DNA of 64,000 nt from an uncultured Atribacterota bacterium (GCA_964462295.1 CAYWXH010000003.1:9653-73652); one strand, 5' to 3'. Positions 25,397-45,384 are shown, counted from the first letter of the stretch. Notes: generated by a model from the sequence alone, not told the origin. Program-made: numbers and translations.

Positions 25397-25714
25397 GGGG
25401 TATAAGTTGCGAGCCGAGCTCCTGTCTCGTAAAACCAGGACCAAACAAATAAACGCCGAAGACAACTTCGCACTAGCAGCTTAGTTAATTAAGCTGCCGC
25501 CTACCCTTCCTCTGATCCTCGGGAAGGAATAGGCGTCAATGAGAGGATCTTATCTTTCACCCTTGCCCACGGGGTGAAAGAGACATATTCTGTGGGCTTG
25601 CAATCTTCTCCCTGCCTGAGGGGGAGGAGATTGTGAAATTTAAACCTCAGGCTACGCTCGTAGAGGCTTGTACCAACATATCCCTGGACGCGGGTTCGAT
25701 TCCCGCCGCCTCCA
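25396..25714 (+). ncRNA. ssrA: Transfer-messenger RNA (tmRNA, SsrA)
   Basis: 5' GGGGG directly after the smpB stop. Internal tag ORF GCC GAA GAC AAC TTC GCA CTA GCA GCT TAG gives AEDNFALAA, followed by extra stops. 3' tRNA-like end GGACGCGGGTTCGATTCCCGCCGCCTCCA (T-arm plus acceptor with G3:U), followed by a T-run. CCA is not encoded. The exact 5' end is approximate. Confidence 0.85.
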
Positions 25715-25751
25715 TTTTTATGACTATTTAGCTGGAGGACAATATAAAGTA

Positions 25752-27269
25752 ATGAAGCAAAAATACCTGTTTTTTTCTTTGCTTTTTTTTCTCCTAATTT
25801 TTATCCTCTTTTATCCTTCCCCAGGATATGCTATAAAGAAAGTTAGTGTATATGTAGATGGTAGATATATAGGAAAAATAGATATATATCCTGGTACACA
25901 GGGAAATATCTTGCTTCCTATAAGAGATTTATTCAGACTTTTGGGGGGTTCTGTGGGATGGATTGGCAGTACAAAAGAGACATATATTCAACTTGCAGGC
26001 AAAAAGGTTAGGATAAAAATTGGTAGTAATGAATATAGGGTGGATAGTGAAGTTGGTCATCTTGATACCCCTTTATCAGTGATCGATAATAAGCTCGTAA
26101 TCCCGTGTGATATTTTGAAAAAGATATGGGGATATGATTGTGTTTTGACATCTGGGGGCAGTAAACTTAGTATAAATACTACTTTACCTGTACTTGAAAA
26201 TTTCTATTATAAAAAGAGTAAAGATAGGATAGAATTTATATTTAAGTTTTCTAAGAAACCAGAGATTAAAGCGGGAAAACTTTCCTCTCCACCGCGTATA
26301 TTTGTTGACCTTTACAATACCTCTTCAAGGGTATCATTTGACAATATTTTAATAAACAGTAATATTGTAAAAGGGGTGCGTTCTGGAAGATTTACTCCAT
26401 CTATTTTTCGAATAGTATTTGATTTAGTTAAGGATGCTTATTATACCACTCAGGTAAATGGCAATGATTTGGTCCTTACCATTTTTTACAAAGGGGGAAG
26501 CCTGTCTCAACCTACCCCTCTTCCTTCTATGGCAGAAACACCTACTTCTGGGACAAATACCCCACCTCCTATAAAGTGGACACCACCGCAAAATCATAAA
26601 AAAAAGATTATTATTTTAGACCCTGGGCATGGAGGAAAGGACCCAGGAGCTATAGGAAGATATGGGACAAAGGAGAAAAATATAGTCCTATCTGTTGCCC
26701 TTAGATTAAAAAAGATGCTTGAACAGAGTGGATACACTGTATATATGACAAGATCAAGTGATAGATTTATCCCATTACAGGAAAGACCTCGCATTGCCAA
26801 CAGGAAGAATGGAGACCTATTTATAAGTATTCATGTCAATTCTGCACCCAAAAATACAAAGGCATCAGGTATAGAAACATTCTATCTTTCTTCGAGATAT
26901 TCTGATCCACAGGCAAAAGAGGTGGCAAAGAGGGAGAATACATCAAGTTTTACAGGTAAGCCTCTTACAGAAGACGAGCTTATAAAACTTATTTTAAGTG
27001 ATCTCTTGCTTACAGTCAATATTGAGGATAGTAGTAAATTTGCAGGACTTTTGGAAAAACAACTAACACGATATGTAAAATTACCTGTTCGAGGGGTAAA
27101 AACAGCACCATTTATTGTACTTAAAGGGCTTAAAATGCCGGCTGTCCTAGTAGAACTTGGATTTATTTCAAATCCAAAAGAAGAGAGTTTGCTTAAGTCT
27201 AAGGACTTTCAACTAAAACTCGTAAAGGGTATTACAAGTGCAATCAAGCTCTTCTTTAGGGGACATTAG
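25752..27269 (+). CDS. N-acetylmuramoyl-L-alanine amidase (amidase_3) with an N-terminal copper-amine-oxidase-like stalk domain and an AMIN domain
   Basis: The ORF-track ORF starts at 25668 inside the tmRNA. The real start is ATG 25752 (MKQKYLFFSLLFF signal peptide) with SD GGAGGA. Catalytic region ILDPGHGGKDPGA..E..ISIHVNS. Pro/Thr-rich linker. Confidence 0.8.
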   Translation: MKQKYLFFSLLFFLLIFILFYPSPGYAIKKVSVYVDGRYIGKIDIYPGTQGNILLPIRDLFRLLGGSVGWIGSTKETYIQLAGKKVRIKIGSNEYRVDSEVGHLDTPLSVIDNKLVIPCDILKKIWGYDCVLTSGGSKLSINTTLPVLENFYYKKSKDRIEFIFKFSKKPEIKAGKLSSPPRIFVDLYNTSSRVSFDNILINSNIVKGVRSGRFTPSIFRIVFDLVKDAYYTTQVNGNDLVLTIFYKGGSLSQPTPLPSMAETPTSGTNTPPPIKWTPPQNHKKKIIILDPGHGGKDPGAIGRYGTKEKNIVLSVALRLKKMLEQSGYTVYMTRSSDRFIPLQERPRIANRKNGDLFISIHVNSAPKNTKASGIETFYLSSRYSDPQAKEVAKRENTSSFTGKPLTEDELIKLILSDLLLTVNIEDSSKFAGLLEKQLTRYVKLPVRGVKTAPFIVLKGLKMPAVLVELGFISNPKEESLLKSKDFQLKLVKGITSAIKLFFRGH

Positions 27270-28635: not shown

Positions 28636-29150
28636 GCTATTTTTTGTTTCTGATTCTAATCTTATCTCTTTTCTGGTTTTTCCTCTTATGGTTACCAAAG
28701 AGATTGCAAAAGGAAAGATTTAAAAAGAGAATGTTAAGTGGAAAGACGGCCGAAAAAGAGGCAGAGGAAATTCTAAGAAAAAGAGGATACAAGATACTAT
28801 CCTATCAGAAGAGAGACAAGTATGAAATTATAGTAGATAATGAACCCTACCAGATAACTGTTATTGCTGATTTTCTTGTAGAAAAAAGAGGAAGGAAGTA
28901 TGTAGTAGAGGTAAAAACCGGAAGAGATGCCCCCTCTATTAAAAACTCTACAACAAGAAGACAGCTTCTTGAGTATTATTATGTATTTAAACCAGATGGT
29001 ATATTACTTGTAGATATGGAGAATGGACTATTTCATCATATAGAATTTCTCTTTCCGTACAGACATAATATTTATAATTACATAATCTATTTTATAGTCG
29101 GCTTTCTTGCTGGAGGTGTAATATTATATTTGATCATGAGGATAAAATGA
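28632..29150 (+). CDS. Membrane-anchored hypothetical protein with a PD-(D/E)xK-nuclease-like core
   Basis: 172 aa. TM helices at both ends. Soluble middle part has a D(ADFLV)...E-V-K (RKYVVEVKTG) pattern resembling PD-(D/E)xK. Confidence 0.3.
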   Translation: MSYFLFLILILSLFWFFLLWLPKRLQKERFKKRMLSGKTAEKEAEEILRKRGYKILSYQKRDKYEIIVDNEPYQITVIADFLVEKRGRKYVVEVKTGRDAPSIKNSTTRRQLLEYYYVFKPDGILLVDMENGLFHHIEFLFPYRHNIYNYIIYFIVGFLAGGVILYLIMRIK

Positions 29151-30001
29151 TATTTGGATTGGTTCTTAATACAAAGAAAGAGATAGCTATCGAGGTTGCA
29201 AAGAGGATAATAGAATTTCTTTTTCAAAGAGGTTATGAGGTTCTTATTGAAAAAAGAGATGATGAGCCTTGTATAGAGGATTTTAAGGATTTTTTCGTAT
29301 CAGATGATATTTTCTTGAAAAAAGTAGACCTTATTATAGTTTTGGGGGGAGATGGCACCTTTTTGCGGGCATCTAGAAAGGCTGTTTTTTATGATATACC
29401 TATATTAGGTGTAGACCTTGGAGGTCTTGGTTTTTTATCAGAGATAGGTAAGGAGCAGATAGAAGAGGGAATAGAAAGGTTTGTTAAAGGTAACTATTCT
29501 ATAGAAGAAAGGATGATGATAGAGGCCTCTATCTTTGAAAAAGATGAACTTATATTTTCATCTGTTGCCTTAAATGATGTAGTTTTGAATAAGTTCAGGA
29601 TTTCCCGTATAACCAAGTTTGTAACCAAGGTAAATGGTAAAGACCTTACTACTTATCCTGCAGATGGTATTATCATATCTACACCTACGGGTTCTACTGC
29701 CTATTCTCTATCTGCAGGGGGCCCTATAGTAGAGCCTTTGGCAGATGTACTTGTTGTAACTCCTATATGTGCACATACCCTCTATTCTCGTTCCCTTGTC
29801 ATACGGGGAGACAGAGAGATAGAGATTACACTTTTTGAACCGGAGGAAGATGTCCTTGTAACATACGATGGACAGAAGAGTCTTAAGATATCTTATAGAA
29901 ATAAAATTATAATAAAGAAATATAAAAAAAAGGTAAAAATAGTGAGATTCTATGGTGCTCACTTTTTTGATGTATTAAGAGAAAAATTGAGATGGGGTTA
30001 A
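29147..30001 (+). CDS. nadK: NAD+ kinase
   Basis: 284 aa. GGDGTFL and NDVV..TPTGSTAYSLSAGGPI motifs. Confidence 0.85.
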   Translation: MIFGLVLNTKKEIAIEVAKRIIEFLFQRGYEVLIEKRDDEPCIEDFKDFFVSDDIFLKKVDLIIVLGGDGTFLRASRKAVFYDIPILGVDLGGLGFLSEIGKEQIEEGIERFVKGNYSIEERMMIEASIFEKDELIFSSVALNDVVLNKFRISRITKFVTKVNGKDLTTYPADGIIISTPTGSTAYSLSAGGPIVEPLADVLVVTPICAHTLYSRSLVIRGDREIEITLFEPEEDVLVTYDGQKSLKISYRNKIIIKKYKKKVKIVRFYGAHFFDVLREKLRWG

Positions 30002-31653
30002 GAGAATTAACAATAAAAAATTTTGCACTTATTGAGTATATAGATGTGGAATTTGCTCCTGGGCTTAATGTGATAACAGGAGAGACTGGAGCAGGTAAGA
30101 CCCTTATTTTAAAGGCAATTGAATTTGCACTTGGGGCAAGGGCAGATGCAAGGTATATAAGGGATAAGGAGAGGGGAAGTGTTACCCTTCTTATAGATAT
30201 TCCAGGGCCATATGTGGAATCTTTGGGGCTTAGAGAAGGAGAAGAACTTATTGTCAAAAGAGAAATTGAACCTGGTGGACGGACAAAAATGTATATAAAT
30301 GGAGAACCTGTACCTCAGATGAAAACAAAGGAGGTCCTCTTTAATATATTTGAGTTTCATGGGCAATTTTCTAATATTGCCCTTTTTACAAAATCATATA
30401 TGACGAATTTGTATGACAATTTTTTAGGGGATAAGGTTTCAAAAATTAAAAAAGAATTGAAGGAGAATCTCTCTAGATTAAAGGTTCTAAAGGAAAAACT
30501 TAGAGAAAATACAAGTGAAAATCATGAAGAAGAGATTAAATACATAGAAGAGCAACTTAGGGAATTTGAGGCCTTAGGGATTACTCAAGATACAGAGGAT
30601 ACCCTGCGAGATGAAGAGAAACTGTTGAGAAATGCAAGAGAAATAGTAAAGAGTGTTACCTTTTCTTATGACCTATTGTATGGCAATGATACATCTGTAG
30701 GTTCTCTTTTGGCCCTTGTCAAGAGAGAACTTGGTCGTATATCTTCGTATTCTTCTGATATAAATAATATTATAGATAGAATAGATTCTTTGTCAATTGA
30801 AGTAGACGATATATCCCAAGAACTATATGATTTTAGGGAGAAAATAGAGATAGATGATGAAAGGTTGGAAAAAGTAGAAGAACTTCTCTCTCAAATTTAT
30901 TCATTTAAGAGAAAATACAGAATAAAAGATATGACAGATATAATATCTTATATGAATGATTTAAAGGAGAGACTTAAATCCTTATATGATAAAAAGAGAG
31001 AAATAAAGGAAATAGAGGAGGAGATAGATAATATAAAGTTTAAATTAAAATCATTAGCTGATAGATTGACGACATTCCGGTTAGAAAAGATAAAGGATAT
31101 AGAAAAAAAGATAGAAGAGAATATAAAAGAATTGGGTATGCCATATGCTAAATTTACAATATCTATGGTACCAAGCAAGAGAGGAGAAGAGATTTTAACA
31201 GATAAGGGGGTTATATATATTAATGAAAATGGAAAAGAGGAGATAGAGTTTTTGTTCTCTGCAAATCCTGACAAAAGCCCAGATTCCCTTTCTAAGGTAG
31301 CATCTGGGGGAGAGCTATCCCGTGTTATGCTTGCGATAAAGTCTGTACTTTTCCGAAGGGATAGCATGGAAAAGGTACTTTTATTTGATGAAATAGACCA
31401 GGGGATAGGAGAGAGGTTAGGAGATGTTGTTGGGGAAAAATTGAAGGAGCTTTCTCGGTTTAATCAGCTTATAGTAGTTACTCATCTTTCTCAAATAGCA
31501 AAAAAGGCGGATAATCACATATTTATTAGTAAATCATTTTTAGATGGAAAAACAAATGTTTTTGCCAGGTTAATTCAAGGGGAAGAGAGGAATAAAGAAC
31601 TTTTGCGTATGATTGGTGGAGAAGGCCATATAAGGACATTAAGGAGGGAATAA
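29992..31653 (+). CDS. recN: DNA repair protein RecN
   Basis: 553 aa. N-terminal Walker A GETGAGKT, long coiled coil, C-terminal signature and Walker B (LLFDEIDQGIG). 10-nt overlap with nadK. Confidence 0.85.
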   Translation: MGLRELTIKNFALIEYIDVEFAPGLNVITGETGAGKTLILKAIEFALGARADARYIRDKERGSVTLLIDIPGPYVESLGLREGEELIVKREIEPGGRTKMYINGEPVPQMKTKEVLFNIFEFHGQFSNIALFTKSYMTNLYDNFLGDKVSKIKKELKENLSRLKVLKEKLRENTSENHEEEIKYIEEQLREFEALGITQDTEDTLRDEEKLLRNAREIVKSVTFSYDLLYGNDTSVGSLLALVKRELGRISSYSSDINNIIDRIDSLSIEVDDISQELYDFREKIEIDDERLEKVEELLSQIYSFKRKYRIKDMTDIISYMNDLKERLKSLYDKKREIKEIEEEIDNIKFKLKSLADRLTTFRLEKIKDIEKKIEENIKELGMPYAKFTISMVPSKRGEEILTDKGVIYINENGKEEIEFLFSANPDKSPDSLSKVASGGELSRVMLAIKSVLFRRDSMEKVLLFDEIDQGIGERLGDVVGEKLKELSRFNQLIVVTHLSQIAKKADNHIFISKSFLDGKTNVFARLIQGEERNKELLRMIGGEGHIRTLRRE

Positions 31654-31658
31654 CAACT

Positions 31659-32723
31659 ATGTATAAGGTATTAGTTATAAATCCAGGAGCGACTTCAACA
31701 AAAATAGCTGTATATGAAGATGAAAAAGAGATATTTTCTAAAACTATATACCATTCTACAGAGGAAATCTCTAAATTTAATAAGGTTAGTGAACAGTATG
31801 AGTTTAGAAAAAATACGATATTGAACGCATTGGAGGAGGCAGGTTTCCCTATTGATAGTTTTTCTGCCATAGTAGGACGAGGTGGACTTCTTAAACCCCT
31901 CTCTGGAGGAACGTATCTTGTAAATGATAAGATGGTAGAGGACCTTATAGAGAGGCCCAGGGCAGAACATGCATCAAATTTGGGTGCATTAATTGCCAAA
32001 GATATAGCATCATCTATAGGTGTCCCTGCATATATCGTAGACCCTGTTTGTGTAGATGAGTTTGAGCCGATTGCAAGGATTTCGGGTCTCCCTGAGATAG
32101 AAAGAGAGAGCCTTTCACATGCATTGAATTTAAAGGCTATGGCAAAAAGGTATGCAAAGGAGATAGGTAAAAACTATGAAGAATTAAACCTTGTAGTTGT
32201 ACATCTTGGGTCTGGTATATCCGTAAGCGCACATAGAAATGGTCGCATGATAGATGTAAATGATGCAAGTTCGGAGGGACCATTTGCCCCTGAGCGTTCG
32301 GGAAGTGTTCCCGAACGTGCCCTTGTGAAACTTTGTTATTCTGGTAAGTATACAGCGAAACAGATGGAGAAAAAGATATTTGGAGAAGGTGGTATGTATG
32401 CATATCTTGGAACTCGTGATGCCCGAGAGGTAGAAAAAATGATAGAAGAAGGCAATGAGCAGGCCAAACTTATATATGAGGCTATGGCATATCAGGTTGC
32501 AAAAGAGATAGGGGCAGTATCTACTGTGTTGAAAGGCAAGATAGATGCTATAATAATAGGAGGGGCCCTTGCATATTCTTCTATGTTTACTTCATGGATA
32601 AAGGAAAGGGTTTCATTTATATCAAAGATAGTTCTCTATCCAGGAAGTGATGAGATGAAGGCACTTGCCCTTGGGGCATTGAGAGTCTTAAGAGGAGAAG
32701 AAGAACCTAATATATACAAGTAG
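31659..32723 (+). CDS. buk: Butyrate (branched-chain fatty acid) kinase
   Basis: 354 aa. MYKVLVINPGATSTKIAVYED. Acetate/butyrate kinase (ASKHA) fold motifs VVHLGSGISVSAH. Confidence 0.85.
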   Translation: MYKVLVINPGATSTKIAVYEDEKEIFSKTIYHSTEEISKFNKVSEQYEFRKNTILNALEEAGFPIDSFSAIVGRGGLLKPLSGGTYLVNDKMVEDLIERPRAEHASNLGALIAKDIASSIGVPAYIVDPVCVDEFEPIARISGLPEIERESLSHALNLKAMAKRYAKEIGKNYEELNLVVVHLGSGISVSAHRNGRMIDVNDASSEGPFAPERSGSVPERALVKLCYSGKYTAKQMEKKIFGEGGMYAYLGTRDAREVEKMIEEGNEQAKLIYEAMAYQVAKEIGAVSTVLKGKIDAIIIGGALAYSSMFTSWIKERVSFISKIVLYPGSDEMKALALGALRVLRGEEEPNIYK

Positions 32724-32741
32724 ATAAAAAGGAGGCGTAAG

Positions 32742-33938
32742 ATGGGATTTGAGAAATTTTTTTCTGAAAGGGCAAAAAAGGTTAAGGCATCAGCTATAAG
32801 AGAGCTTTTAAAGTTGGTTAACAATCCTGAGATTATATCTCTTGCAGGAGGACTTCCTGATCCTGCTACCTTTCCTAAGGAAGAGGTAAAAAAGATTTCA
32901 CAAGAAGTTGTAGATAAATATGGAGACAAGGCCCTACAATACGGTATTACCGAGGGTATCCCTGAACTTAGGGCATGGTTAGGAAAGAATTTTTCTGGAA
33001 AAGAAGTAGGGGCAGAAAATGTAATAATAACTAGTGCTTCTCAACAGGGGTTAGAACTTGTGGGAAAGGCCTTTATTGATCCAGATGACCCTATAATTGT
33101 AGAACTTCCAAGCTATCTTGGGGCTATTTCTGCATTTAAACTTTACGATGCTCGTTTTGTAGGTGTTACTTTAGATGATGAGGGATTAAAGATAGATGAG
33201 TTGAAACAAAAATTGGTAGAACTTAAAAAAGAAGGGAAGAGCCCTAAGTTTGTATATACAGTTTCTAATTTTCACAACCCTGCAGGGGTAACACTTTCTC
33301 TTGAGAGAAGAAAAGAGCTTTTAACCCTTGCAAATGAAAATGATTTCCTTATTGTCGAAGATGACCCTTATCATTTTATAAACTTTAGTAATGAGAATAT
33401 ACCTTCTATCTATTCCCTTGATAAAGAGGATAGAGTACTTCTTTTAGGAACATTTTCTAAAATTCTTACACCTGGATTTAGGTTAGGGTGGATATTTGGA
33501 CCAGAGGAGGCGCTTCAGAAGATAGTACAAATAAAACAGGCAACAGATCTCTGTACAAATACCTTTGTTCAATATATCGCATACGAATATGCAGAAAGTG
33601 GAGCCCTTGAGGCACACTTTGAGCATATTGTAAAGATTTACAAAGAAAAAAGGGATGTAATGCTTGAATCCCTTGATAAGTATTTCCCCAAAGAAGTTAA
33701 ATGGACTCATCCAGAGGGTGGTTTCTTTGTGTTCGCATACCTCCCTGAATACATAAATACAGATGAGATGTTTTATGACGCAATAGAGGAAAAAGTGGCA
33801 TATGTTATAGGCTCTGCCTTTTATCCAGATGGATCAGGTACAAATACTATGAGACTCTCTTTCTGTTATCCTTCAAAAGAGCAGATAGAAGAGGGGATAA
33901 AGAGACTTGGGAATGTTATAAAGAAGAAATTGAGGTGA
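32742..33938 (+). CDS. PLP-dependent aminotransferase, class I/II
   Basis: 398 aa with fold-type I motifs (NPAG, SFSKIL..PGFRLGW with the Lys). Position between buk and ptb suggests an amino acid:2-oxoacid transaminase. Confidence 0.7.
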   Translation: MGFEKFFSERAKKVKASAIRELLKLVNNPEIISLAGGLPDPATFPKEEVKKISQEVVDKYGDKALQYGITEGIPELRAWLGKNFSGKEVGAENVIITSASQQGLELVGKAFIDPDDPIIVELPSYLGAISAFKLYDARFVGVTLDDEGLKIDELKQKLVELKKEGKSPKFVYTVSNFHNPAGVTLSLERRKELLTLANENDFLIVEDDPYHFINFSNENIPSIYSLDKEDRVLLLGTFSKILTPGFRLGWIFGPEEALQKIVQIKQATDLCTNTFVQYIAYEYAESGALEAHFEHIVKIYKEKRDVMLESLDKYFPKEVKWTHPEGGFFVFAYLPEYINTDEMFYDAIEEKVAYVIGSAFYPDGSGTNTMRLSFCYPSKEQIEEGIKRLGNVIKKKLR

Positions 33939-33947
33939 TGAACTGTT

Positions 33948-34862
33948 ATGGTAAAAACTATAGGAGAAATAATTCAGCAAGTTAAGGCTTTACCTACAAA
34001 GAAAATTACTATAGCAGGTGCAGAATCTGAAGAGGTTCTGAAAAGTGCTGATGAGGCCTTAAGAGAAGGTATAGCAGACCCTATACTTGTAGGAAATAGA
34101 GAAAAAATATACGATGTAGCGAAGAGATGCAATGTAGGTTTAGGAACATTTTCTATTGTGGATGCAGAAGATGAAGTAGATGCGGCGAAAAAGGCAGTAG
34201 AACTTGTTGTAAAGGGAAATGCTGAGGTTGTGGTAAAAGGTATTGTAAAGACACCTGTTATATTGAAAGCAGTACTTGACAAAGAATATGGCCTGCGTAC
34301 AGATAGGCTCCTCACTCACGTATTTCTTATTGAAATAGAGGGATTTGATAGATTACTTATAGTAACAGATGGAGGGATTATTATCTCTCCTACCCTTGAA
34401 GAGAAGATACACATCGTTCAAAATGCCATAGATTTTGCACGCGCTATAGGAATTGAGGAGCCAAAAGTAGCCCTTTTAGGAGCTATAGAACTTGTAAATC
34501 CTAAGATGCCAGAGTCTATCGAGGCAGCAGCTATTTCAAAGATGGCGGAAAGGGGACAGATAAAGGGTGGTATCGTTGATGGTCCTCTTGCATTGGATAA
34601 TGCAATATCTGAGGAATCTGCTCGAATCAAAGGGATAAAAAGTCCTATAGCAGGAAAGGCCGATATATTGGTAGTGCCTGATATAAGGTCTGGGAATATT
34701 TTTGGGAAATCTTTGATGTATTTTTCTAAGATAAAATCAGCTGGTCTTGTGGTAGGGGCAAGGGCACCTGTTGTACTTACATCTCGTTCAGATTCGGCCG
34801 AGAATAGGCTAAATTCTATTGCAATTGGTATGCTTATGGCTAAGAATATGAAAAGAGGCTAG
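33948..34862 (+). CDS. ptb: Phosphate butyryltransferase / phosphate acyltransferase
   Basis: 304 aa. Phosphate acetyl/butyryl transferase family motifs (GAESEEVL, SGNIFGK..AGLVVGARAPVVLTSRSDS). Confidence 0.8.
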   Translation: MVKTIGEIIQQVKALPTKKITIAGAESEEVLKSADEALREGIADPILVGNREKIYDVAKRCNVGLGTFSIVDAEDEVDAAKKAVELVVKGNAEVVVKGIVKTPVILKAVLDKEYGLRTDRLLTHVFLIEIEGFDRLLIVTDGGIIISPTLEEKIHIVQNAIDFARAIGIEEPKVALLGAIELVNPKMPESIEAAAISKMAERGQIKGGIVDGPLALDNAISEESARIKGIKSPIAGKADILVVPDIRSGNIFGKSLMYFSKIKSAGLVVGARAPVVLTSRSDSAENRLNSIAIGMLMAKNMKRG

Positions 34863-34865
34863 GAT

Positions 34866-35534
34866 ATGAAAGATCTTACTATATTTACAGGGGCTTTTGG
34901 AAGTGGAAAAACGGAGATATCTATAAATTATGCTATAAATTTTGCAAAAGAATATAATGTAGCTCTTATAGATTTAGATATTGTAAATCCCTATTTTAGG
35001 TCAAGAACTAAAAGAGAAGTAATGGAGGAAAGAGGAGTTAAAGTAATAGCTCCCGAAGGTGGATTAAGTTATGTGGATGTACCTATAGTGCTCCCTCAGG
35101 TAAAAGGTTTTATAGAAAATAAAGATTTTAAGGTAGTTTTAGATATAGGAGGAGAAAAGGTAGGCGCAAAAGTACTTGGAAGCCTTAAACCTTCTGTAGA
35201 GAGTAGAGATTATGAGCTTTTATTTGTTGTAAATACATATAGGCCTTTTACCTCAAGTGTAGATGAAATCCTTTCGATGGCAAAGGAGATAGAGGGGGCA
35301 GCTCGATTGCGATTTACCGGGGTTGTAGCAAATCCAAATCTTGGGTATGAAACTACAAGAGAGGATATTTTAAAAGGTTTTGAGATTATACGGGAAGCCT
35401 CAAGGAAATTGGGGCTTCCCGTTAAATTTTTGGTAGTAGGGGATGACTTTTTAAAAGAGATAGAAAAAGAAGATTTAGGACTTTCTATCTTTCCTATAAA
35501 AAGATATCTTAGATTGCCATTTCTCGATTATTAA
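34866..35534 (+). CDS. Uncharacterised P-loop NTPase
   Basis: 222 aa. Walker A GAFGSGKTE. Possible Walker B LIDLDIVNP. Family not recognised. 3-nt gap after ptb and 11 nt before the ferredoxin subunit gene. Confidence 0.35.
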   Translation: MKDLTIFTGAFGSGKTEISINYAINFAKEYNVALIDLDIVNPYFRSRTKREVMEERGVKVIAPEGGLSYVDVPIVLPQVKGFIENKDFKVVLDIGGEKVGAKVLGSLKPSVESRDYELLFVVNTYRPFTSSVDEILSMAKEIEGAARLRFTGVVANPNLGYETTREDILKGFEIIREASRKLGLPVKFLVVGDDFLKEIEKEDLGLSIFPIKRYLRLPFLDY

Positions 35535-35545
35535 AGGAGGCTAAT

Positions 35546-35782
35546 ATGGCTGCGTTAAAAGGTTATATTGTAATTGATGAAGAGATATGCAAAGGTTGTG
35601 GGCTATGTACTACTGCATGCCCTGTACATATCATAGAACTTGCAGATTACTTTAATTCTCATGGCTATCATCCTGCAGTCCTTAAGGAACCAGATAAATG
35701 CACAGGGTGTACTATGTGTGCACTTATCTGTCCAGATGTAGCAATTGAAGTTTACAGAGAACCTATAAAGAAGGGGGTGTAA
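35546..35782 (+). CDS. 2-oxoacid:ferredoxin oxidoreductase delta subunit (2x[4Fe-4S] ferredoxin)
   Basis: 78 aa. Two CxxCxxCxxxCP motifs (CKGCGLCTTACP, CTGCTMCALICP). Confidence 0.75.
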   Translation: MAALKGYIVIDEEICKGCGLCTTACPVHIIELADYFNSHGYHPAVLKEPDKCTGCTMCALICPDVAIEVYREPIKKGV

Positions 35783-35786
35783 TATT

Positions 35787-36836
35787 ATGGGGAAAGTAAT
35801 GATGAAAGGTAATGAGGCTATTGGGGAAGCTGCTATAATGGCAGGCTGTACCCACTATTTTGGATATCCCATTACCCCTCAAAGTGAGCTTACTGCATAT
35901 ATGGCGAGAATGCTTCCGAAGAAAGGAGGAGTATTTTTACAAAGTGAGAGTGAAGTAGCAGCAATCAATATGCTTTATGGAGCAGGTGCTGCTGGTGCAA
36001 GGGTAATGACTTCTTCCTCTGGACCAGGTATATCTTTGATGTCAGAAGGTATATCATATATAGCATGTTCTGAAATACCCGTGGTACTTGTAAATATTCA
36101 AAGAGGTGGACCAGGCTTAGGAACAATTCAACCTGCACAGAGTGATTATCTTCAGGCTACAAAGGGAGGAGGACATGGAGATTATCACCTTATAGTACTT
36201 GCACCATCTTCTGTTCAAGAACTTGTTGACCTAACACAAAAGGCCTTTGATCTTGCGGATAAATACAGAAATCCAGTTATGGTATTGGGAGATGGTCTAT
36301 TAGGTCAGATGATGGAGCCTGTGGAAATAAAAGAGATAAAACCTAAACATTATGATAAATCATGGGCATTGACAGGGGCAAAGGGTAGAGCTCCACACAG
36401 GATTACATCGTTTGATATTGACCCATATAAGTTAGAAGAAGTTGTATGGAAACTCAAAAAGAAGTATGAAGAGATAGAAAAGAATGAGATAATGTACGAA
36501 GAGGTAGATACAGAGGATGCAGAAATTTTAATAATGGCCTTTGGTAGTGTAGGTAGGATCTCTAAAACTGTTATAAGAGAGTTAAGGGACGAAGGTATTA
36601 AGGTAGGCCTATTAAGACCTATTACACTTTGGCCTTTCCCTTCTGAAAAGGTCTACGAAGTTGCATCTCGAATTGGAAAGGTATTGGTTTCGGAAATGAA
36701 TGCAGGACAAATGGTAGAAGATGTAGAAAAGGCCGTAAAAGGAAAGGCAGATATTCATTTTTATGGGAGACCAGGTGGTGTAGTTATTACACCAAAGGAG
36801 TTAGAAGAAGAGATTAAAAGGATTCTGGGGAGGTAG
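35787..36836 (+). CDS. 2-oxoacid:ferredoxin oxidoreductase alpha subunit, likely the VorB-type subunit of 2-ketoisovalerate:ferredoxin oxidoreductase
   Basis: 349 aa. Pyruvate-flavodoxin/ferredoxin oxidoreductase domain I/II similarity. VOR specificity is inferred from the buk/ptb context. Confidence 0.75.
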   Translation: MGKVMMKGNEAIGEAAIMAGCTHYFGYPITPQSELTAYMARMLPKKGGVFLQSESEVAAINMLYGAGAAGARVMTSSSGPGISLMSEGISYIACSEIPVVLVNIQRGGPGLGTIQPAQSDYLQATKGGGHGDYHLIVLAPSSVQELVDLTQKAFDLADKYRNPVMVLGDGLLGQMMEPVEIKEIKPKHYDKSWALTGAKGRAPHRITSFDIDPYKLEEVVWKLKKKYEEIEKNEIMYEEVDTEDAEILIMAFGSVGRISKTVIRELRDEGIKVGLLRPITLWPFPSEKVYEVASRIGKVLVSEMNAGQMVEDVEKAVKGKADIHFYGRPGGVVITPKELEEEIKRILGR

Positions 36837-36838
36837 CC

Positions 36839-37633
36839 ATGTCAGAGAAAAAGATAAATATTCCCGAGGGAATGGAAAAGGTTTTTACTCGTACAAAAGG
36901 GCTTACAGATATGCCATTTACATATTGCCCCGGATGTCATCACGGAATTGCCCATAGACTTGTTGGAGAGGCATTGGAAGAGCTTGGAGTAATTGAGGAT
37001 ACTATAGGAGTTGCCCCTGTGGGATGCTCTGTATTTGCCTATCTATTTTTTAATGTAGATACCATTGTTGCTCCACATGGTAGAGCCCCAGCTCTTGCCA
37101 CAGGGATAAAAAGGGTTCATCCAGATAAGGTAGTTTTTACATACCAAGGAGATGGGGACCTTGCAGCAATCGGTACCGCAGAAATAGTACATGCGGCAAA
37201 TAGAGGAGAAAATATAACAGTAATTTTTATAAATAATGCAATTTATGGTATGACAGGGGGGCAAATGGCCCCGACCACTTTAATAGGTCAAGTTACTGAA
37301 ACAAGCCCTTACGGAAGGGACCCGAAGGTGGCAGGCTATCCCATAAGAATATCAGAAATGCTTGCCCAATTAGAAGGTAGTTACTATATAGCAAGGGTTG
37401 CCCTTAATAATGGGGCGAATATATTGAAAGCGAAAAAATCAATACTAAAGGCATTTAAAAATCAGATAGAAGGAAAGGGATTTTCTCTTATTGAAGTGCT
37501 TTCTACTTGTCCTACTAATTGGGGTGTTACACCAATTGAGGCAAATAATTGGATAAAGGAGAAGATGATCCCTGTTTATCCTTTAGGGGTATTTAAGGAT
37601 AAAGATAAAGAGGAAGGTGAAAACAATGCATGA
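36839..37633 (+). CDS. 2-oxoacid:ferredoxin oxidoreductase beta subunit (TPP-binding)
   Basis: 264 aa. CPGCHHG and GDGD..AIG TPP motif. Confidence 0.8.
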   Translation: MSEKKINIPEGMEKVFTRTKGLTDMPFTYCPGCHHGIAHRLVGEALEELGVIEDTIGVAPVGCSVFAYLFFNVDTIVAPHGRAPALATGIKRVHPDKVVFTYQGDGDLAAIGTAEIVHAANRGENITVIFINNAIYGMTGGQMAPTTLIGQVTETSPYGRDPKVAGYPIRISEMLAQLEGSYYIARVALNNGANILKAKKSILKAFKNQIEGKGFSLIEVLSTCPTNWGVTPIEANNWIKEKMIPVYPLGVFKDKDKEEGENNA

Positions 37634-38162
37634 GGAGATAATAATCGCAGGCTTTGGTGGACAAGGAGTCATGTCTATGGGAAGGCTTCTTGCATATATC
37701 GGCATGCTTGAGGGAAAAAGTGTTTCTTGGTATCCTTCCTATGGACCGGAAATGAGGGGTGGTACAGCTAACTGTACAGTAATTATCTCTTCTGACCTTA
37801 TAGGATCACCTGTTACATCTACACCTACTACTGCTATAGTGATGAACAGACCTTCCCTTGATAAATTTGAACCTATGGTAAAAAAAGGAGGATACTTATT
37901 TATAAATAGCTCTCTTATAGATAAAAAGGCAGAGAGGACTGATATAAAAGTATATGAGGTCCCTGCAAATGATATAGCAGAAGAAATAGGAAATCCAAAA
38001 GTGGCAAATATGGTAATGATAGGTGCATATATAGGAGTTACAGGAATTTTTCCAAAAGATAGAGCAATCGAGGCTATGAGAAGCAGCTTAAAAAAGGCAG
38101 GTGAAGATATTCTTTTGCTAAATAAAGAAGCTATAGAAAGGGGTTATAATTTATTCAAATGA
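37617..38162 (+). CDS. 2-oxoacid:ferredoxin oxidoreductase gamma subunit
   Basis: 181 aa. IIIAGFGGQGVMSMGRLL typical of the gamma subunit. 17-nt overlap with the beta subunit gene. Confidence 0.75.
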   Translation: MKTMHEEIIIAGFGGQGVMSMGRLLAYIGMLEGKSVSWYPSYGPEMRGGTANCTVIISSDLIGSPVTSTPTTAIVMNRPSLDKFEPMVKKGGYLFINSSLIDKKAERTDIKVYEVPANDIAEEIGNPKVANMVMIGAYIGVTGIFPKDRAIEAMRSSLKKAGEDILLLNKEAIERGYNLFK

Positions 38163-39289
38163 GGGTACCTATTTTTACACCAAAGAGGCAATATAAAATA
38201 CTTAAGGAAGAAATAGATAAGGCTATATTTTCAGTTTTGGAAAGTGGCATATTTATATTAGGTGAAAATGTAAAGAATTTTGAAAGGGAGGTAGCAGATT
38301 ATTTAGGATCAAGATTTGCTATAGGAGTCTCTTCAGGGACATCTGCCTTACTCATATCTCTTAGGGCTTTTAACTTAAAAAAGGATGATCTAGTAATTAC
38401 TACACCTTTTACCTTTTTTGCAACAGCAGAGGAGATAATAAATGCAGGAGGAACCCCTATTTTTGCAGATATAGAGGAGGAAGACTTCTCCCTTTCTCCA
38501 GAGAAGACAGAGGATATCTTAAAAAAACATAAGGGCAAAATAAAGGTGATACTGCCTGTGCATCTTTTTGGAAAATGTGCAAATATGGAGGATTTCTTTT
38601 TCCTTTCAAAAAAGTATAGAGTACATATAGTGGAAGATGCTGCGCAAATAATCGGGTCAATATGTAAAGTAGATGGGGAAGAGAAAAAAGGGGGAACCAT
38701 TGGTGATTTCGGTGCATTTAGTTTTTTCCCTACAAAAAATCTTGGGGCCTATGGTGATGGAGGACTAATTGTTACAAATAATGAAAAACTTTATGAAATG
38801 GCAAATATGATTCGTTCACATGGTTCTAAAAAGAGATATTATCACGAAATCGTAGGAACAAATAGTAGATTGGATGAAATACAGGCAGCAATACTTAGGG
38901 TAAAATTAAAATATCTTGATTCTTTTAATAAAAAGAGAGTAGAGATTGCAAAATATTATAATGATAAAATAAAAGCACTTGATTTACCGATAAAAACACC
39001 TCATGTACCTGATGATGGCTCCCATATTTTTCATCAGTATGTTATAAAAACAGAAAAAAGGGATGAACTTAGTAGATTTTTAAATGAACATGGAGTAGGA
39101 AATGCTATTTACTATCCTGTACCCCTTCACTTTCAGAAGGCGCTTCTATATCTTGGTTATAAACCTGGTGACTTTCCTGTGGCTGAGAAGGTATCGAAAG
39201 AGGTAATAGCACTTCCTATTTTTCCTGAACTAAAAAGAGAGGAATTGGATTATGTAATAGAGATATTAGAAAAATTTTATAAGGGATAG
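38159..39289 (+). CDS. DegT/DnrJ/EryC1/StrS-family PLP-dependent aminotransferase (sugar aminotransferase-like)
   Basis: 376 aa with family motifs (FSFFPTKNLGAYGDGG, active-site Lys). ATGA overlap with the gamma subunit gene. Confidence 0.75.
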   Translation: MRVPIFTPKRQYKILKEEIDKAIFSVLESGIFILGENVKNFEREVADYLGSRFAIGVSSGTSALLISLRAFNLKKDDLVITTPFTFFATAEEIINAGGTPIFADIEEEDFSLSPEKTEDILKKHKGKIKVILPVHLFGKCANMEDFFFLSKKYRVHIVEDAAQIIGSICKVDGEEKKGGTIGDFGAFSFFPTKNLGAYGDGGLIVTNNEKLYEMANMIRSHGSKKRYYHEIVGTNSRLDEIQAAILRVKLKYLDSFNKKRVEIAKYYNDKIKALDLPIKTPHVPDDGSHIFHQYVIKTEKRDELSRFLNEHGVGNAIYYPVPLHFQKALLYLGYKPGDFPVAEKVSKEVIALPIFPELKREELDYVIEILEKFYKG

Positions 39290-39327
39290 GGGGTCCCCTA
39301 TCCCTTATAAAAGGAGGATGATAAAGT

Positions 39328-40257
39328 ATGTATGTAATATGGGGAGAGCATTCAAAACTTTACTCCTTTGGCCCAAACCACCCCTTTAATGCCTCTCGTT
39401 ATACCCTTTTTGAAAAAGAGTTTAGTATCTTAAAGAAAGAATTACCCATTAAAATTTTACCTCCTAAATTAGCCTCATTTTCTGATATCTCTCTCTTTCA
39501 TACCCCTTCTTATGTAGAATTTGTAGAGAAACAATCTAAAATAGGAAAAGGGTATCTTGATTATGGTGATACACCGGCATTTAGGGGAGTATATGAGGCA
39601 GCATCTTATTTAGTAGGAAGTGCTATTTTAGGTATAGACCTTGTACTCTCTAACAAAGAACCGGTATTTCAAATTGCAGGAGGACTCCACCATGCAAAAA
39701 GAGATACTGCGGCGGGATTTTGTGTGTTCAATGACCCAGGAGTTGCCATTTCATATCTACTTGATAAAAAAGGAGTAGCTTCAGTTTTTTATATAGATAT
39801 AGATGCCCACCACGGTGATGGAGTAATGTATGGATTCTATGATGATAAAAGAGTAATTATATTAGATATACATGAAAATGGAAGATATCTCTATCCAGGC
39901 ACAGGTTTTGAATATGAAACCGGTGAAGGTGATGCAAAAGGGACTAAATTCAATATTCCTCTTTTACCCTCTGCAACAGATGAAGAGCTTATAAAGGCTA
40001 TTATGAGTGCAGAAGATATAGTAAAGCAGTTTTCCCCTGATTTTCTTTTGGTGCAGGCTGGTGTAGATGGTTTTTTAGGGGACCCTATTTCTCATCTTTC
40101 TTATACTTTAAGTGGGTACCAAGAAACAATTGAATTTATAAAATATTTGAGCAAACAATATTTTGATAATAAAGTGCTTATTTTTGGAGGGGGAGGGTAT
40201 AGTGCTAAAAATTTAAAAGATGCATGGATATCTGTAATAAAAGCTTTTACAAAATAA
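39328..40257 (+). CDS. Histone deacetylase-family (AcuC/AphA-like) deacetylase
   Basis: 309 aa. GGGLHHAKRD, DIDAHHGDG, and a glycine-rich GGGGY end motif. Confidence 0.75.
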   Translation: MYVIWGEHSKLYSFGPNHPFNASRYTLFEKEFSILKKELPIKILPPKLASFSDISLFHTPSYVEFVEKQSKIGKGYLDYGDTPAFRGVYEAASYLVGSAILGIDLVLSNKEPVFQIAGGLHHAKRDTAAGFCVFNDPGVAISYLLDKKGVASVFYIDIDAHHGDGVMYGFYDDKRVIILDIHENGRYLYPGTGFEYETGEGDAKGTKFNIPLLPSATDEELIKAIMSAEDIVKQFSPDFLLVQAGVDGFLGDPISHLSYTLSGYQETIEFIKYLSKQYFDNKVLIFGGGGYSAKNLKDAWISVIKAFTK

Positions 40258-40310
40258 TAATCTGTGTTATAATAAAAAAATAAATCTTTTTAAAAAGGTG
40301 AAGAGTTTCT

Positions 40311-41372
40311 ATGCCTGGACAAGAAAAGACTGAAAAACCTACGCCTCGGCGCAGGAGGGAAGCAAGGAAAAAGGGGCAAGTTGCAAAGAGTCAAGAGCTA
40401 AATAATGTAGTTATTATCTTGGCGGCAACCCTTTTTTTTCTCTTTTTGGGAACTGTCTTTTTTAAAGGTCTATTTCAAATAATGAAGGCTGTATTTTCAG
40501 GTCTTTATACGATAGATGTCTCTGCAAATAGTTTTTTTTCCTATTTTTCGAAGGGTGTAGGTGTCATTTTTAAGTTGATGATGCCTATGATCGTTATTTT
40601 AATGGTGGCAGGTATTTTAGTTGGGGTCAGCCAAACAGGCCTTATGTTTTCTTTTGAATCTATTTCCCCTAAATTTGATAGAATAAATCCTATAAAAGGT
40701 GCACAAAAGCTTTTTTCAAAAAGGGGAGTCATGGAGGTTGCAAAGGCCCTTTTTAAGGTAGGGGGTATAAGTTATATAATTTTTTCTAGTATACGACTTA
40801 ATGTTTCTATATTTTCCAATTATACCTATATGGATATAGGAGAGATAGTCTCTTCTTTTGTGAAAATTCTTTTTGGTACCATGTTTAAGATTATAGGATT
40901 TTTATTTATAATAGCTATACTAGACTATGCCTTTCAGAAATACGAATTTGAAAAAAGTATTATGATGACAAAACAAGAGGTAAAAGATGAATATAAACAG
41001 ACAGAAGGGGATCCTCAAGTAAAGTCTCGTATAAGAAGTATGCAAAGACAGATGGCAAGACAGAGGATGATGCAGGAGGTTCCTAAGGCAAAGGTTGTAA
41101 TTACAAACCCTGTTCACCTTGCCGTTGCCTTAAAGTATGAAAGCGGTATGAGGGCCCCTGAAGTTGTGGCAAAAGGTGCAAGACTTATTGCAGAGAAGAT
41201 AAAAGAGATAGCACGAGAAAATCATATACCGATAGTAGAGAACCCTCCCCTTGCGCGAGAACTTTATGAAAAAGTGGAGATCGGAGAAGAGATACCAAAG
41301 GAATTGTATAGGGCTGTAGCTGAAGTGTTGGCATATATATACAAAATGGAAAATGCTCGGGTAAGAATATGA
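40311..41372 (+). CDS. flhB: Flagellar biosynthesis protein FlhB (type III export gate, substrate-specificity switch)
   Basis: 353 aa. N-terminal basic region. Four TM helices. Autocleavage-region NPVH motif. C-terminal domain. Confidence 0.85.
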
Positions 41373-43443: not shown

Positions 43444-44534
43444 AAATCAAAACTTATAGGGCAACAAATATGCAAAAAGGGCTTATGATGGTAAAAGATG
43501 AGATGGGTCCACAAGCGGTAATTCTTGAAACCCGCAATGTTAAGGTAGGTGGTTTTTTTGGCCTTTTTGCAAAAAAAATGGTAGAGATAGTTGCAGCAAG
43601 TGATTATCCCGAAGATGTAGAAGATAAAATATATAAAGAAAATACACAGGATAATATAGTACAACCTCCCATTCCTCTTTTTAAATACCATACACCTGTT
43701 TTTAAAAGTAAAAAGTTACAGAATCTTTATGAAGTTTTGGTAAAAAATGAATTGGATGAAGCATTTTCTGCAAATTTGGTAGGAGAGATAGAAAGAGAAC
43801 TATCTGGCGATTTGCTAGATGATGATAATGCCTTAATGGAAAAAGTCACAGAGAAACTAGAAGGACTATTTCTATTTTCTGGACCTATAGATATAGATAA
43901 ACCTAATAAAGTTATATTTTTTGTAGGCCCTACAGGGGTAGGTAAAACTACTACAATTGCAAAGATAGCAGCTTTTTTTACGCTTAATATGAAGAAAAAG
44001 GTTGTACTTGTAAGTATAGATACCTTTAGGATAGCAGCAGTAGAGCAGTTAAGAACTTATGCTGAAATCCTTGGGGTACCTTTTAATGTAGTTTTTACCC
44101 CTTTGGAGCTTGAAAGAATAGTAAAGGCTTATAATGATGCAGATCTTATTTTGGTTGATACAGCAGGGAGAAGTCCTAAAAATGAATTGAGAATGTCAGA
44201 ACTTAAGGGATTCGTGACAAAGATTTTTCCTAAAGAGGTGTATCTGGTTTTAAGCATAGGGACAAGATATACAGACCTAAAAGAGGCTGTAGAGAGATTT
44301 ATTCCATTAAATATAGATAAGTTTATATTTACTAAACTTGATGAGTCTAGTCTTTTTCTGGGTAATATGTTTAAATTAATGAAAGAATATCATTTGCCCA
44401 TTTCCTATATCACCTTTGGTCAAAATGTTCCTGATGATATAGATGTGGCAACAATGAATAATATCCTGGAAAGGTGTATGTATGATGAATATCGTTGGGG
44501 ACCAGGCAGCGAAATTAAGGCAAATAGTAATTGA
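43440..44534 (+). CDS. flhF: Flagellar biosynthesis GTPase FlhF (SRP-type GTPase)
   Basis: 364 aa. NG domain FVGPTGVGKTTTIAKIAA, DTAGR. ATGA overlap with flhA. Confidence 0.8.
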   Translation: MKIKTYRATNMQKGLMMVKDEMGPQAVILETRNVKVGGFFGLFAKKMVEIVAASDYPEDVEDKIYKENTQDNIVQPPIPLFKYHTPVFKSKKLQNLYEVLVKNELDEAFSANLVGEIERELSGDLLDDDNALMEKVTEKLEGLFLFSGPIDIDKPNKVIFFVGPTGVGKTTTIAKIAAFFTLNMKKKVVLVSIDTFRIAAVEQLRTYAEILGVPFNVVFTPLELERIVKAYNDADLILVDTAGRSPKNELRMSELKGFVTKIFPKEVYLVLSIGTRYTDLKEAVERFIPLNIDKFIFTKLDESSLFLGNMFKLMKEYHLPISYITFGQNVPDDIDVATMNNILERCMYDEYRWGPGSEIKANSN

Positions 44535-45384
44535 GAGCGGCGAAATACCAGAGGATGTTAAGACTCAACGCCTAAGAAGTATAGCTATTACATCTGGCAA
44601 AGGCGGTGTAGGCAAGACAAATATTGCAACTAATCTTGCAATAGCCCTTGCTGAGAAAACAAATAAAAAAATATATATACTGGATGCTGACCTGGGACTT
44701 GCCAATATTGATGTGATATTAGGGATAACCCCTAAGTACAATCTTGCACATGTAATAAGAGGAGAAAAAGAGTTAGAAGAGATTCTTGTTAAAGGGCCCA
44801 TGGGTGTAAACATAATCCCAGGCACATCTGGAGTCTCTGAACTTGCAAATCTTTCTAAAGAAGAGAGGGAAAGATTTTTAGAGAAACTCTCCTCTTTAGA
44901 AAATGAAGATGGTATACTTATAATAGATACAGGGGCTGGTATAGATGATAATGTATTGGATTTTGTTCTTTCCTCTGATGAGGTTATAGTTGTGACTACG
45001 CCTGAACCTACAGCGATAACTGATGCATATGCCCTTATAAAGATTATAGCCTCATCAAAAAATGATGTGAATATAAATCTTTTGGTAAATATGATAAGAA
45101 AAGAAGAAGAATTTGAATTGGTAACACGGGGGATACTGCTTGTTGCAAAACAGTTTTTAGGAGTAGATGTTAAGAAATTGGGTTATGTATACTATGATAG
45201 CATAGTTTCAAAATCTGTTCTTTCTCAAGATGCTTTTTATATACTCTATCCTGATAGTATTGCTACAAAATGTATAAATAATATTGCACTTTTTCTTCTT
45301 AACAAAAATGATGAGGTAAAAGATGTGAAAAGACCCACTTTCTTTAGAAGACTTTTAAATTCTATAAAGGAAAAGGTTGGTTAA
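44482..45384 (+). CDS. flhG: Flagellar number regulator FlhG (MinD-like ATPase, YlxH/FleN)
   Basis: 300 aa. N-terminal activator motif DQAAKLR. Deviant Walker A SGKGGVGKT. 53-nt overlap with flhF. Confidence 0.8.
   Translation: MMNIVGDQAAKLRQIVIESGEIPEDVKTQRLRSIAITSGKGGVGKTNIATNLAIALAEKTNKKIYILDADLGLANIDVILGITPKYNLAHVIRGEKELEEILVKGPMGVNIIPGTSGVSELANLSKEERERFLEKLSSLENEDGILIIDTGAGIDDNVLDFVLSSDEVIVVTTPEPTAITDAYALIKIIASSKNDVNINLLVNMIRKEEEFELVTRGILLVAKQFLGVDVKKLGYVYYDSIVSKSVLSQDAFYILYPDSIATKCINNIALFLLNKNDEVKDVKRPTFFRRLLNSIKEKVG

Follow-up and report, generated by a model that had tools for sequence, protein, structure and literature searches.

Positions 31659-38162 of a 64,000-nucleotide stretch of DNA from an uncultured Atribacterota bacterium (GCA_964462295.1 CAYWXH010000003.1:9653-73652; below, at its full length, the window) constitute, as judged by homology and conserved gene order, a member of a known and ancient catabolic module. 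The block encodes a butyrate-type kinase (buk), a class I pyridoxal phosphate (PLP)-dependent aminotransferase, a phosphotransacylase (ptb), a P-loop nucleoside triphosphatase (NTPase), and the delta, alpha, beta, and gamma subunits of a 2-oxoacid:ferredoxin oxidoreductase (OFOR), and is followed by a gene for an aminotransferase of the DegT/DnrJ/EryC1 family. The P-loop gene, which the first-pass annotation had regarded as an unexpected insert beside ptb, proves to head a conserved P-loop-delta-alpha-beta-gamma unit found in five phyla; it is linked near-obligately to OFOR genes, yet it is optional for the OFOR family and is inherited clade by clade. We consider it likely that the whole region is best explained as a catabolic module with an optional P-loop accessory, adjoined by unrelated DegT and histone deacetylase (HDAC)-like genes.

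Linkage of the P-loop gene to OFOR genes

A scan seeded with the P-loop protein, using one genome per species, identified 399 relatives, and the best 80 loci were examined. These come from Atribacterota, Bacillota, Ignavibacteria, Zixibacteria, and Holophagae, the Bacillota being represented by Clostridium, Pelotomaculum, Syntrophomonadaceae, Desulfotomaculaceae, Thermoanaerobacterales, Halanaerobiales, and Mahellales. The delta gene lies within 400 nt of the end of the P-loop gene in 63 of the 65 loci with enough downstream DNA, and one further locus of the 65 has delta-alpha-beta-gamma within 7 kb. The ptb and buk genes are found upstream of the P-loop gene in some lineages only, and the P-loop-delta-alpha-beta-gamma unit is present without them in Ignavibacteria, Zixibacteria, Pelotomaculum, and one C. 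scatologenes locus. The occurrence of the unit without ptb and buk, together with the adjacency of delta, indicates that the P-loop gene belongs with the OFOR genes and not with ptb.

In the reverse test, metagenome contigs were seeded with the alpha subunit, giving 80 loci in which alpha is 53-63% identical to that of the window. Among the 53 of these with at least 1.5 kb of upstream sequence, the P-loop gene is present in 19, plus one in which the gene order is permuted (∼38%). In a tree of the alpha and beta sequences, the nearest neighbor has the same P-loop state in 109 of 116 cases, as compared with ∼63% by chance, a distribution that reflects inheritance by clade.

Some variants of the arrangement should be recorded. 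In one metagenome contig (Ga0316601_100005469, locus L133), the order is P-loop, delta, beta, gamma, alpha. Among three loci from Ignavibacteria (L044, L046, and L074; ∼11.3-14.5 kb in each), the P-loop-delta-alpha-beta-gamma unit is followed in L044 by NuoE-like, NuoF-like, and 2Fe-2S/4Fe-4S genes, and L046 and L074 have size-matched open reading frames (ORFs) at that position; this arrangement suggests an OFOR that is wired to an NADH-linked flavoprotein module. The window also encodes a single-chain pyruvate:ferredoxin oxidoreductase of 1180 amino acids (15069-18611, + strand), which has no P-loop gene beside it. The putative accessory gene accompanies the four-subunit VorB-type enzyme specifically, and not the single-chain enzyme of the window.

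The catabolic core and its relatives

The first-pass annotation described the core of the block as a sequence of transaminase, OFOR, phosphotransacylase, and kinase, a reading that is backed by homology and by conserved synteny in Atribacterota and Clostridium. Its further designation as a branched-chain amino acid fermentation holds with respect to the pathway but not with respect to the restriction to branched-chain substrates, because the aminotransferase is of a multiple-substrate type and enzymes resembling 2-ketoisovalerate:ferredoxin oxidoreductase (VOR) accept other 2-oxoacids. In the predicted pathway, the broad-specificity aminotransferase would generate 2-oxoacids from amino acids; the VorB-type OFOR, composed of delta, alpha, beta, and gamma, would convert these to acyl-CoA, CO2, and reduced ferredoxin; the Ptb-like phosphotransacylase would form acyl-phosphate and CoA from acyl-CoA and Pi; and the Buk-type kinase would use acyl-phosphate and ADP to yield the free acid and one ATP. 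The substrates of the window enzymes would include branched-chain and possibly Met-derived or aromatic compounds.

The individual assignments are as follows. The buk product belongs to the butyr_kinase equivalog family TIGR02707, with a score of 546.2 bits against a cut-off of 289.1. The aminotransferase matches PF00155 with 132.8 bits and is a full-length member of the multiple-substrate/LysN/KAT-II group, as phmmer shows: 1wst, the Thermococcus “multiple substrate aminotransferase,” is matched at 439 bits, PH0207 at 434, and LysN of T. thermophilus at 319; orthologues with 54-59% identity occupy the same position in the Atribacterota loci. The ptb product scores 187.4 bits against PF01515 (PTA_PTB, cut-off 24) and falls slightly under the cut-offs of both Ptb equivalogs, NF004472 (387.6 versus 399) and TIGR02706 (375.7 versus 410.5); it is, by the PF01515 match, a clear member of the PTA_PTB family and a putative Ptb equivalog. 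The OFOR has the organization of the four-subunit VorB type, with separate delta, alpha, beta, and gamma genes that carry the expected domains. The translation of delta contains two CxxCxxCxxxCP motifs, and alpha scores 552.5 bits against NF005507 (VorB, cut-off 399) and has as its nearest solved structures a Pyrococcus 2-ketoacid:ferredoxin oxidoreductase and 2-oxoglutarate enzymes. The beta subunit matches PF02775 with 76 bits and is 62-76% identical across related loci, and gamma matches PF01558 with 148.2 bits.

Previous studies have characterized enzymes of this type. In C. difficile, VorABC, Ptb, and Buk act on branched-chain amino acids in the oxidative branch of Stickland fermentation (PMC6110889), and a trio of VOR-like OFOR, phosphotransacylase, and kinase has been characterized and described as widely distributed among anaerobic Firmicutes (PMC13285125). 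The genetically validated VOR of C. sporogenes takes branched-chain, Met-derived, and aromatic 2-oxoacids as well as pyruvate (PMC12873857), and aromatic-preferring VOR-like enzymes are represented by HpdDEFG and by two Blautia enzymes (PMC12873857, PMC13285125). The block in the window shares its OFOR subunits and its Ptb-like and Buk-like proteins with this Clostridium module (CLOSPO_00146-00149 of C. sporogenes; VorABC/Ptb/Buk of C. difficile; HpdDEFG/HpdJ/HpdK of C. scatologenes). The identities to the corresponding proteins of a locus from the C. botulinum/sporogenes group (L093) are 54% for alpha, 69% for beta, 51% for gamma, 58% for buk, and 49% for ptb. In L093, a buk-ptb-buk cluster is separated by a gap of 263 nt from P-loop-delta-alpha-beta-gamma, the P-loop gene being directly upstream of delta, as it is in the window; however, the window has one buk where L093 has two, and its aminotransferase gene is inside the cluster, as in Atribacterota. 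The published work on the Clostridium module makes no mention of the P-loop gene.

The closest relatives of the P-loop protein (46-51% identity), alpha (61-66%), and beta (70-76%) are from Atribacterota, in which the cluster has the order nadK-recN-(sigma54 activator)-aminotransferase-ptb-buk-P-loop-delta-alpha-beta-gamma-M42 peptidase. The window has the same nadK-recN pair upstream but differs in having neither the sigma54 activator gene nor a −24/−12 promoter near the operon, in having buk before the aminotransferase gene, and in having DegT and HDAC-like genes in place of the peptidase gene. An order of nadK-recN-(spoIVB-spo0A)-...-P-loop-OFOR-M20/M42 peptidase is seen in Pelotomaculum and Atribacterota (loci L005 and L051) and, up to the OFOR genes, in the window (29147-31653). 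The stretch from nadK-recN to the OFOR genes looks like an old synteny block that extends across phyla.

The P-loop protein and its possible roles

The P-loop protein has the GAFGSGKTE motif described in the first-pass annotation and is, on the basis of its predicted fold, a member of an uncharacterized SIMIBI NTPase family; the AlphaFold model generated from the homologue alignment is confident (predicted local distance difference test score of 83.9). A sequence search of the PDB with this protein gave nothing meaningful (best E of 0.005 to an unrelated dehydrogenase, and E of 0.73 to HypB), and its match to Pfam is limited to a marginal one with CbiA (29.8 bits). Pfam and NCBIfam searches with the protein and 45 homologues yielded only sub-threshold or barely supra-threshold matches to generic P-loop models, the aligned homologues showing weak sub-threshold matches to the ParA/NUBPL, GPN-loop, and SRP54 models. 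The motifs that are invariant in the 45 homologues are GxFGSGKTE, DLDIxNPYFRxR, PEG, DxGG, NxYRPF, and NPNL; there is no invariant Cys or His in the family, and the protein of the window contains neither residue. A profile search of 1.84 billion representatives identified 733 clusters of relatives at E ≤ 1e-30 and 1784 at E ≤ 1e-10. The names given to relatives in public databases, “ATP-binding protein,” “ParA family,” “MipZ,” “nitrogenase subunit NifH,” and “MinD-like ATPase,” are generic or wrong. The protein can be compared with SIMIBI accessory NTPases such as CooC, HypB (including the Mrp-type 3vx3), UreG, NifH, and ApbC/Nbp35/Cfd1, from which it differs in having neither a metal-binding Cys/His motif nor the signature lysine, in having an OFOR as its partner, and in scoring above the cut-off of no family model.

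The linkage of the gene and the fold of its product lead us to propose, as the most likely of its possible roles but with rather less than even confidence, that the P-loop protein is an NTP-dependent accessory for OFOR assembly, stabilization, or regulation. Such an accessory would be optional and would be neither a catalytic subunit nor an Fe-S carrier. A narrower form of this proposal is that the family comprises unrecognized nucleotide-dependent assembly or activation factors that are dedicated to VorB-type OFORs, which we hold to be somewhat unlikely; a SIMIBI switch free of metal ligands would then load or dock the Fe-S subunits beta and delta, or gate the activity of the enzyme. A search of the literature for an accessory NTPase or P-loop protein of OFORs found none described. 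In one report, a recombinant VOR-like enzyme assembled badly and contained the beta subunit in substoichiometric amounts (PMC13285125), so that a helper in assembly is conceivable. The C. sporogenes VOR, when produced from four genes, is active in E. coli lysates (PMC12873857), and the P-loop protein is therefore dispensable for catalysis; we infer that this VOR corresponds to the P-loop-linked locus L093.

Several observations weigh against a dedicated role in OFOR function. The remaining 33 of the 53 alpha-seeded loci have no P-loop gene within 5 kb, and no replacement gene is found at the corresponding position in these loci, where the upstream genes (bestrophin-like, Dxs, GNAT, DUF2070) are mutually unrelated. 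Since ∼60% of similar OFORs are without the P-loop gene, any role must be non-essential or clade-specific. Numerous Arg, Asn, and aromatic residues are invariant in the family and sit in loops at strand C termini, a feature that would also fit an enzyme. Also, the P-loop gene survives in places without an adjacent OFOR, and a strictly OFOR-dedicated role leaves this unexplained. Three representatives (P0368, P0370, and P0447; 667-672 amino acids) are fusions of FolC, with its Mur-ligase domains, to a complete P-loop domain. The P0368 locus has the order valS-folC::P-loop-SPOR-rimP-nusA with no OFOR nearby, and in L049 folC precedes a stand-alone P-loop gene, also with no OFOR.

FolC is fused to, or encoded beside, the P-loop protein in some Bacillota (L095/L096, L049, L071, L063, and L085), L095 being without a nearby OFOR. 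The fusion was considered as a “Rosetta stone” for a function in folate metabolism but was downgraded when the order folC-P-loop-delta-alpha-beta-gamma was found in L063 and L085. The FolC link probably derives from a gene order in Bacillota in which the five-gene unit follows valS-folC. A neighbor-joining tree of the P-loop sequences is star-like, and the FolC-linked copies may or may not constitute one clade.

The FolC fusions and the invariant Arg, Asn, and aromatic residues favor the main alternative, in which the P-loop protein is not a switch acting on another protein but itself catalyzes a reaction in the pathway or in cofactor metabolism, as an enzyme of a carboxylate-activating or kinase type, similar to BioD, the ATP domain of CobB/CobQ, or formate-tetrahydrofolate ligase (FTHFS). 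We regard this as improbable, since the pathway is chemically complete without the protein, the four-gene VOR functions in E. coli, the adjacency to folC is explicable by the valS-folC-P-loop-VOR order in some Bacillota, and no candidate substrate emerges. A role as a fifth subunit, present in stoichiometric amounts in the OFORs of this clade, although consistent with tight co-inheritance as the first gene of the unit and with the gap of just 11 nt to delta in the window, is judged quite unlikely in view of the activity of the four-gene enzyme, the large proportion of close OFOR relatives that do not have the gene, and its occurrence apart from OFOR genes; also, the Shine-Dalgarno sequence of the P-loop gene (AGAGG) is weaker than those of the structural genes (AAGGAGG).

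The positioning ATPases and Fe-S carriers named in public annotations (MinD/ParA/FlhG and Mrp/ApbC, respectively) have the slightest probability, being largely refuted by the absence of the signature lysine and of any conserved Cys, by scores below the cut-offs of all specific models, and by the OFOR linkage. With respect to MinD/ParA/FlhG, the 45 homologues have G[SAG]FGSGKT where xKGGxxGK[ST] is required, and the AAA_31 model matches only 4 of 45 family members at E ≤ 1. Moreover, the window has its own bona fide FlhG gene (44482-45384, + strand; PF10609 and PF13614) in a flhB-flhA-flhF-flhG block, and this shows that the 222-residue protein is distinct from the MinD-like ATPase of flagellar or division function that some pipelines take it for. 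An Fe-S carrier of the Mrp/ApbC/Nbp35/NUBPL type is contradicted by the absence of CxxC and a PF10609 score of 14.7 bits (cut-off 27.1), a G3E GTPase (HypB/UreG/CobW/MeaB) by a PF02492 score of 11.3 bits (cut-off 20.7) and the lack of a metal motif, and an SRP-type GTPase (Ffh/FtsY/FlhF; PF00448) by the absence of the guanine-specificity motif TKxD, which places the protein outside that group.

The DegT gene, the layout of the locus, and its significance

The sequence contains nine ORFs, all on the + strand, that agree exactly with the map in the first-pass annotation and whose domains bear out its gene assignments, including the overlap of the DegT start codon with the gamma stop codon as ATGA and the presence of an HDAC-like gene and then flhB downstream (Table 1). 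The proposal that DegT is coupled to the OFOR, whether by serving as a further transaminase for keto acids or by connecting it with flagellin glycosylation, is, in contrast, very unlikely. The product is a member of the DegT/DnrJ/EryC1/StrS family (PF01041, 364.1 bits; cut-off 19.8) but is under every NCBIfam equivalog cut-off, among them those of PseC (TIGR03588, 241.1 versus 423.5 bits) and LegC (TIGR04181, 190.6 versus 420 bits), and there is therefore no support for a connection with flagellin glycosylation through pseudaminic or legionaminic acid, although flhB and flhA are only two genes downstream. A strong promoter-like site (40246-40273, 11/12) directly upstream of flhB also argues against such a connection, as does the lack of other nucleotide-sugar genes, or of pse- or leg-like genes, within the 64-kb window. 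The closest solved structures are 7b0d (345 bits), QdtB (3frk, 289 bits), 2oga (named only “Transaminase”), WbpE, and NtdA, and those relatives with descriptive names are sugar or cyclitol aminotransferases. The PLP-binding Lys is retained in the FSFFPTKNLGAYGDGG stretch that is common to 7b0d and QdtB; the Lys in FSFFPTKNLG aligns with those of both structures, and the FSF(F/Y)PTKNLGAYGDGG stretch and its Lys are shared with 7b0d and, closely, with QdtB. Unlike 7b0d, QdtB, WbpE, and NtdA, the DegT of the window has no partner dehydratase or isomerase gene nearby.

The genomic context of DegT leads to a similar view. Outside the clade of the window, no DegT gene was found behind gamma in either set of 80 loci, genomic or metagenomic, and in Atribacterota and Pelotomaculum a peptidase gene occupies its position. 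The nearest named homologue outside the clade for which the context was examined, from Dictyoglomus (54% identity), is located between Wzz and a nucleotide-sugar epimerase/dehydratase, in what is a polysaccharide locus. It should be noted that the gamma-DegT overlap is retained across the clade, down to 72% identity in DegT and 61% in the P-loop protein, and this favors a coupling; given this conservation, DegT is likely to be co-transcribed with the OFOR genes, which is a point against treating it as an unrelated neighbor. However, a 4-nt overlap is a routine junction in this genome and the ATGA is thus not a mark of a functional link. DegT most likely acts on sugars or cyclitols, as an ordinary aminotransferase that takes no part in 2-oxoacid metabolism, and it and the HDAC-like gene would be neighbors gained in the lineage of the window. 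In the Dictyoglomus loci (L089/L090), the DegT homologue, with its flanking genes, is followed by smpB, an AMIN-amidase gene, and an M20/M42 peptidase gene; smpB and the AMIN-amidase gene are also upstream of the operon in the window, and the M20/M42 peptidase gene is 3' of the OFOR genes in Atribacterota and Pelotomaculum, hinting that these neighbors are remnants of a shared gene order.

The gaps within the block from buk to DegT are 18, 9, 3, 11, 4, 2, −17, and −4 nt. Similar spacing is found throughout the window, in which the + strand carries nearly all of the genes between 9.2 and 57.9 kb and the 51 junctions have a median gap of 3 nt, with 75% at ≤20 nt and 37% overlapping, many by 4 nt; recN ends 5 nt upstream of buk and is overlapped by nadK. 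Because close spacing is general in the window and not particular to this block, spacing alone is not proof of a single transcript or of functional coupling, but a single transcript for the block is plausible. In public gene calls, alpha starts 15 nt later than in Table 1, giving 344 residues, and gamma starts at ATG 37626, giving 178 residues.

Table 1. Positions of the genes and of two inverted repeats in the window
Feature	Position	Strand	Product or description	Family or model
buk	31659..32723	+	Butyrate-type (short or branched-chain acyl) kinase, 354 aa	TIGR02707
Class I PLP aminotransferase	32742..33938	+	Multiple-substrate/LysN/KAT-II group, 398 aa	PF00155
ptb	33948..34862	+	Phosphate butyryltransferase-like phosphotransacylase, 304 aa	PF01515
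P-loop NTPase	34866..35534	+	SIMIBI-class, uncharacterized, 222 aa, N terminus MKDLTIFTGAFGSGKTE
Hairpin and U-run	35390..35422	+	Inside P-loop ORF; perfect 14-bp stem, then UUAAAUUUUUGG
OFOR delta	35546..35782	+	Ferredoxin-like, 78 aa, two [4Fe-4S] motifs	PF00037, PF13237
OFOR alpha	35787..36836	+	VorB type, 349 aa	NF005507, POR_N + PFOR_II
OFOR beta	36839..37633	+	Thiamine pyrophosphate (TPP)-binding, 264 aa	PF02775 (TPP_enzyme_C)
OFOR gamma	37617..38162	+	181 aa from GTG 37617	PF01558 (POR)
DegT	38159..39289	+	DegT/DnrJ/EryC1-family sugar aminotransferase, 376 aa	PF01041
17-bp palindrome	39275..39312	.	Spans DegT stop codon, ends just before Shine-Dalgarno of HDAC-like gene
HDAC-like gene	39328-40257		Follows DegT
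flhB	40311-41372		After HDAC-like gene; flhA next

Searches for regulatory signals gave largely negative results. A sigma70 scan of the window found 40 sites as compared with 52 expected from shuffled sequence and so gave no signal, and a search for sigma54 sites found no −24/−12 site near the operon, the 21 matches in the window comparing with ∼18 by chance. A search of the whole window with Rfam found only a tmRNA and hence no leader RNA for the operon. The block has no intergenic terminator, and the sole strong terminator-like site on its + strand is the hairpin within the P-loop ORF, for which the RNA minimum free energy is −28.1 kcal/mol (z = −6.2 relative to shuffled sequences). This hairpin is kept in a relative with 81% identity in DegT (L091; z = −5.1), where there is one change of G-C to G-U and the loop has changes; no comparable hairpin is present in L088, and the sequence has diverged in L005 of Atribacterota. 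It might act as a translation-sensitive attenuator, or else as a site at which the RNA is processed or stabilized, between the genes upstream and those of the OFOR. The 5' arm of the palindrome at the end of DegT consists of the last codons of the gene and its stop codon, and no T-run follows it on the + strand; in L091, the HDAC-like gene instead overlaps DegT. The tmRNA gene (25368-25717, + strand; Rfam score of 205.6 bits, tag peptide AEDNFALAA) is directly after smpB (24938-25396) and is overlapped by a listed ORF (25668-27269); the amidase gene must therefore start later than that ORF.

The operon itself adds little to what has been established, as it places the known module for conversion of amino acids through acyl-CoA and acyl-phosphate to acids and ATP in an uncultured lineage of low GC content, the operon genes of which have their closest relatives in Atribacterota. 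The lead worth keeping is the P-loop family, which is mis-annotated and whose link to VorB-type OFORs, seen in several phyla, is tight though optional. Its genes hardly ever occur apart from those of such an OFOR, and they are represented in genetically tractable Clostridium. OFORs are hard to express and reconstitute, and they are the gateway through which gut and subsurface anaerobes form branched-chain and aromatic fatty acids. Should the P-loop protein turn out to assist in assembly or regulation, it would provide a practical handle on these enzymes, and, if it is a factor dedicated to them, it could explain their poor assembly in heterologous hosts.

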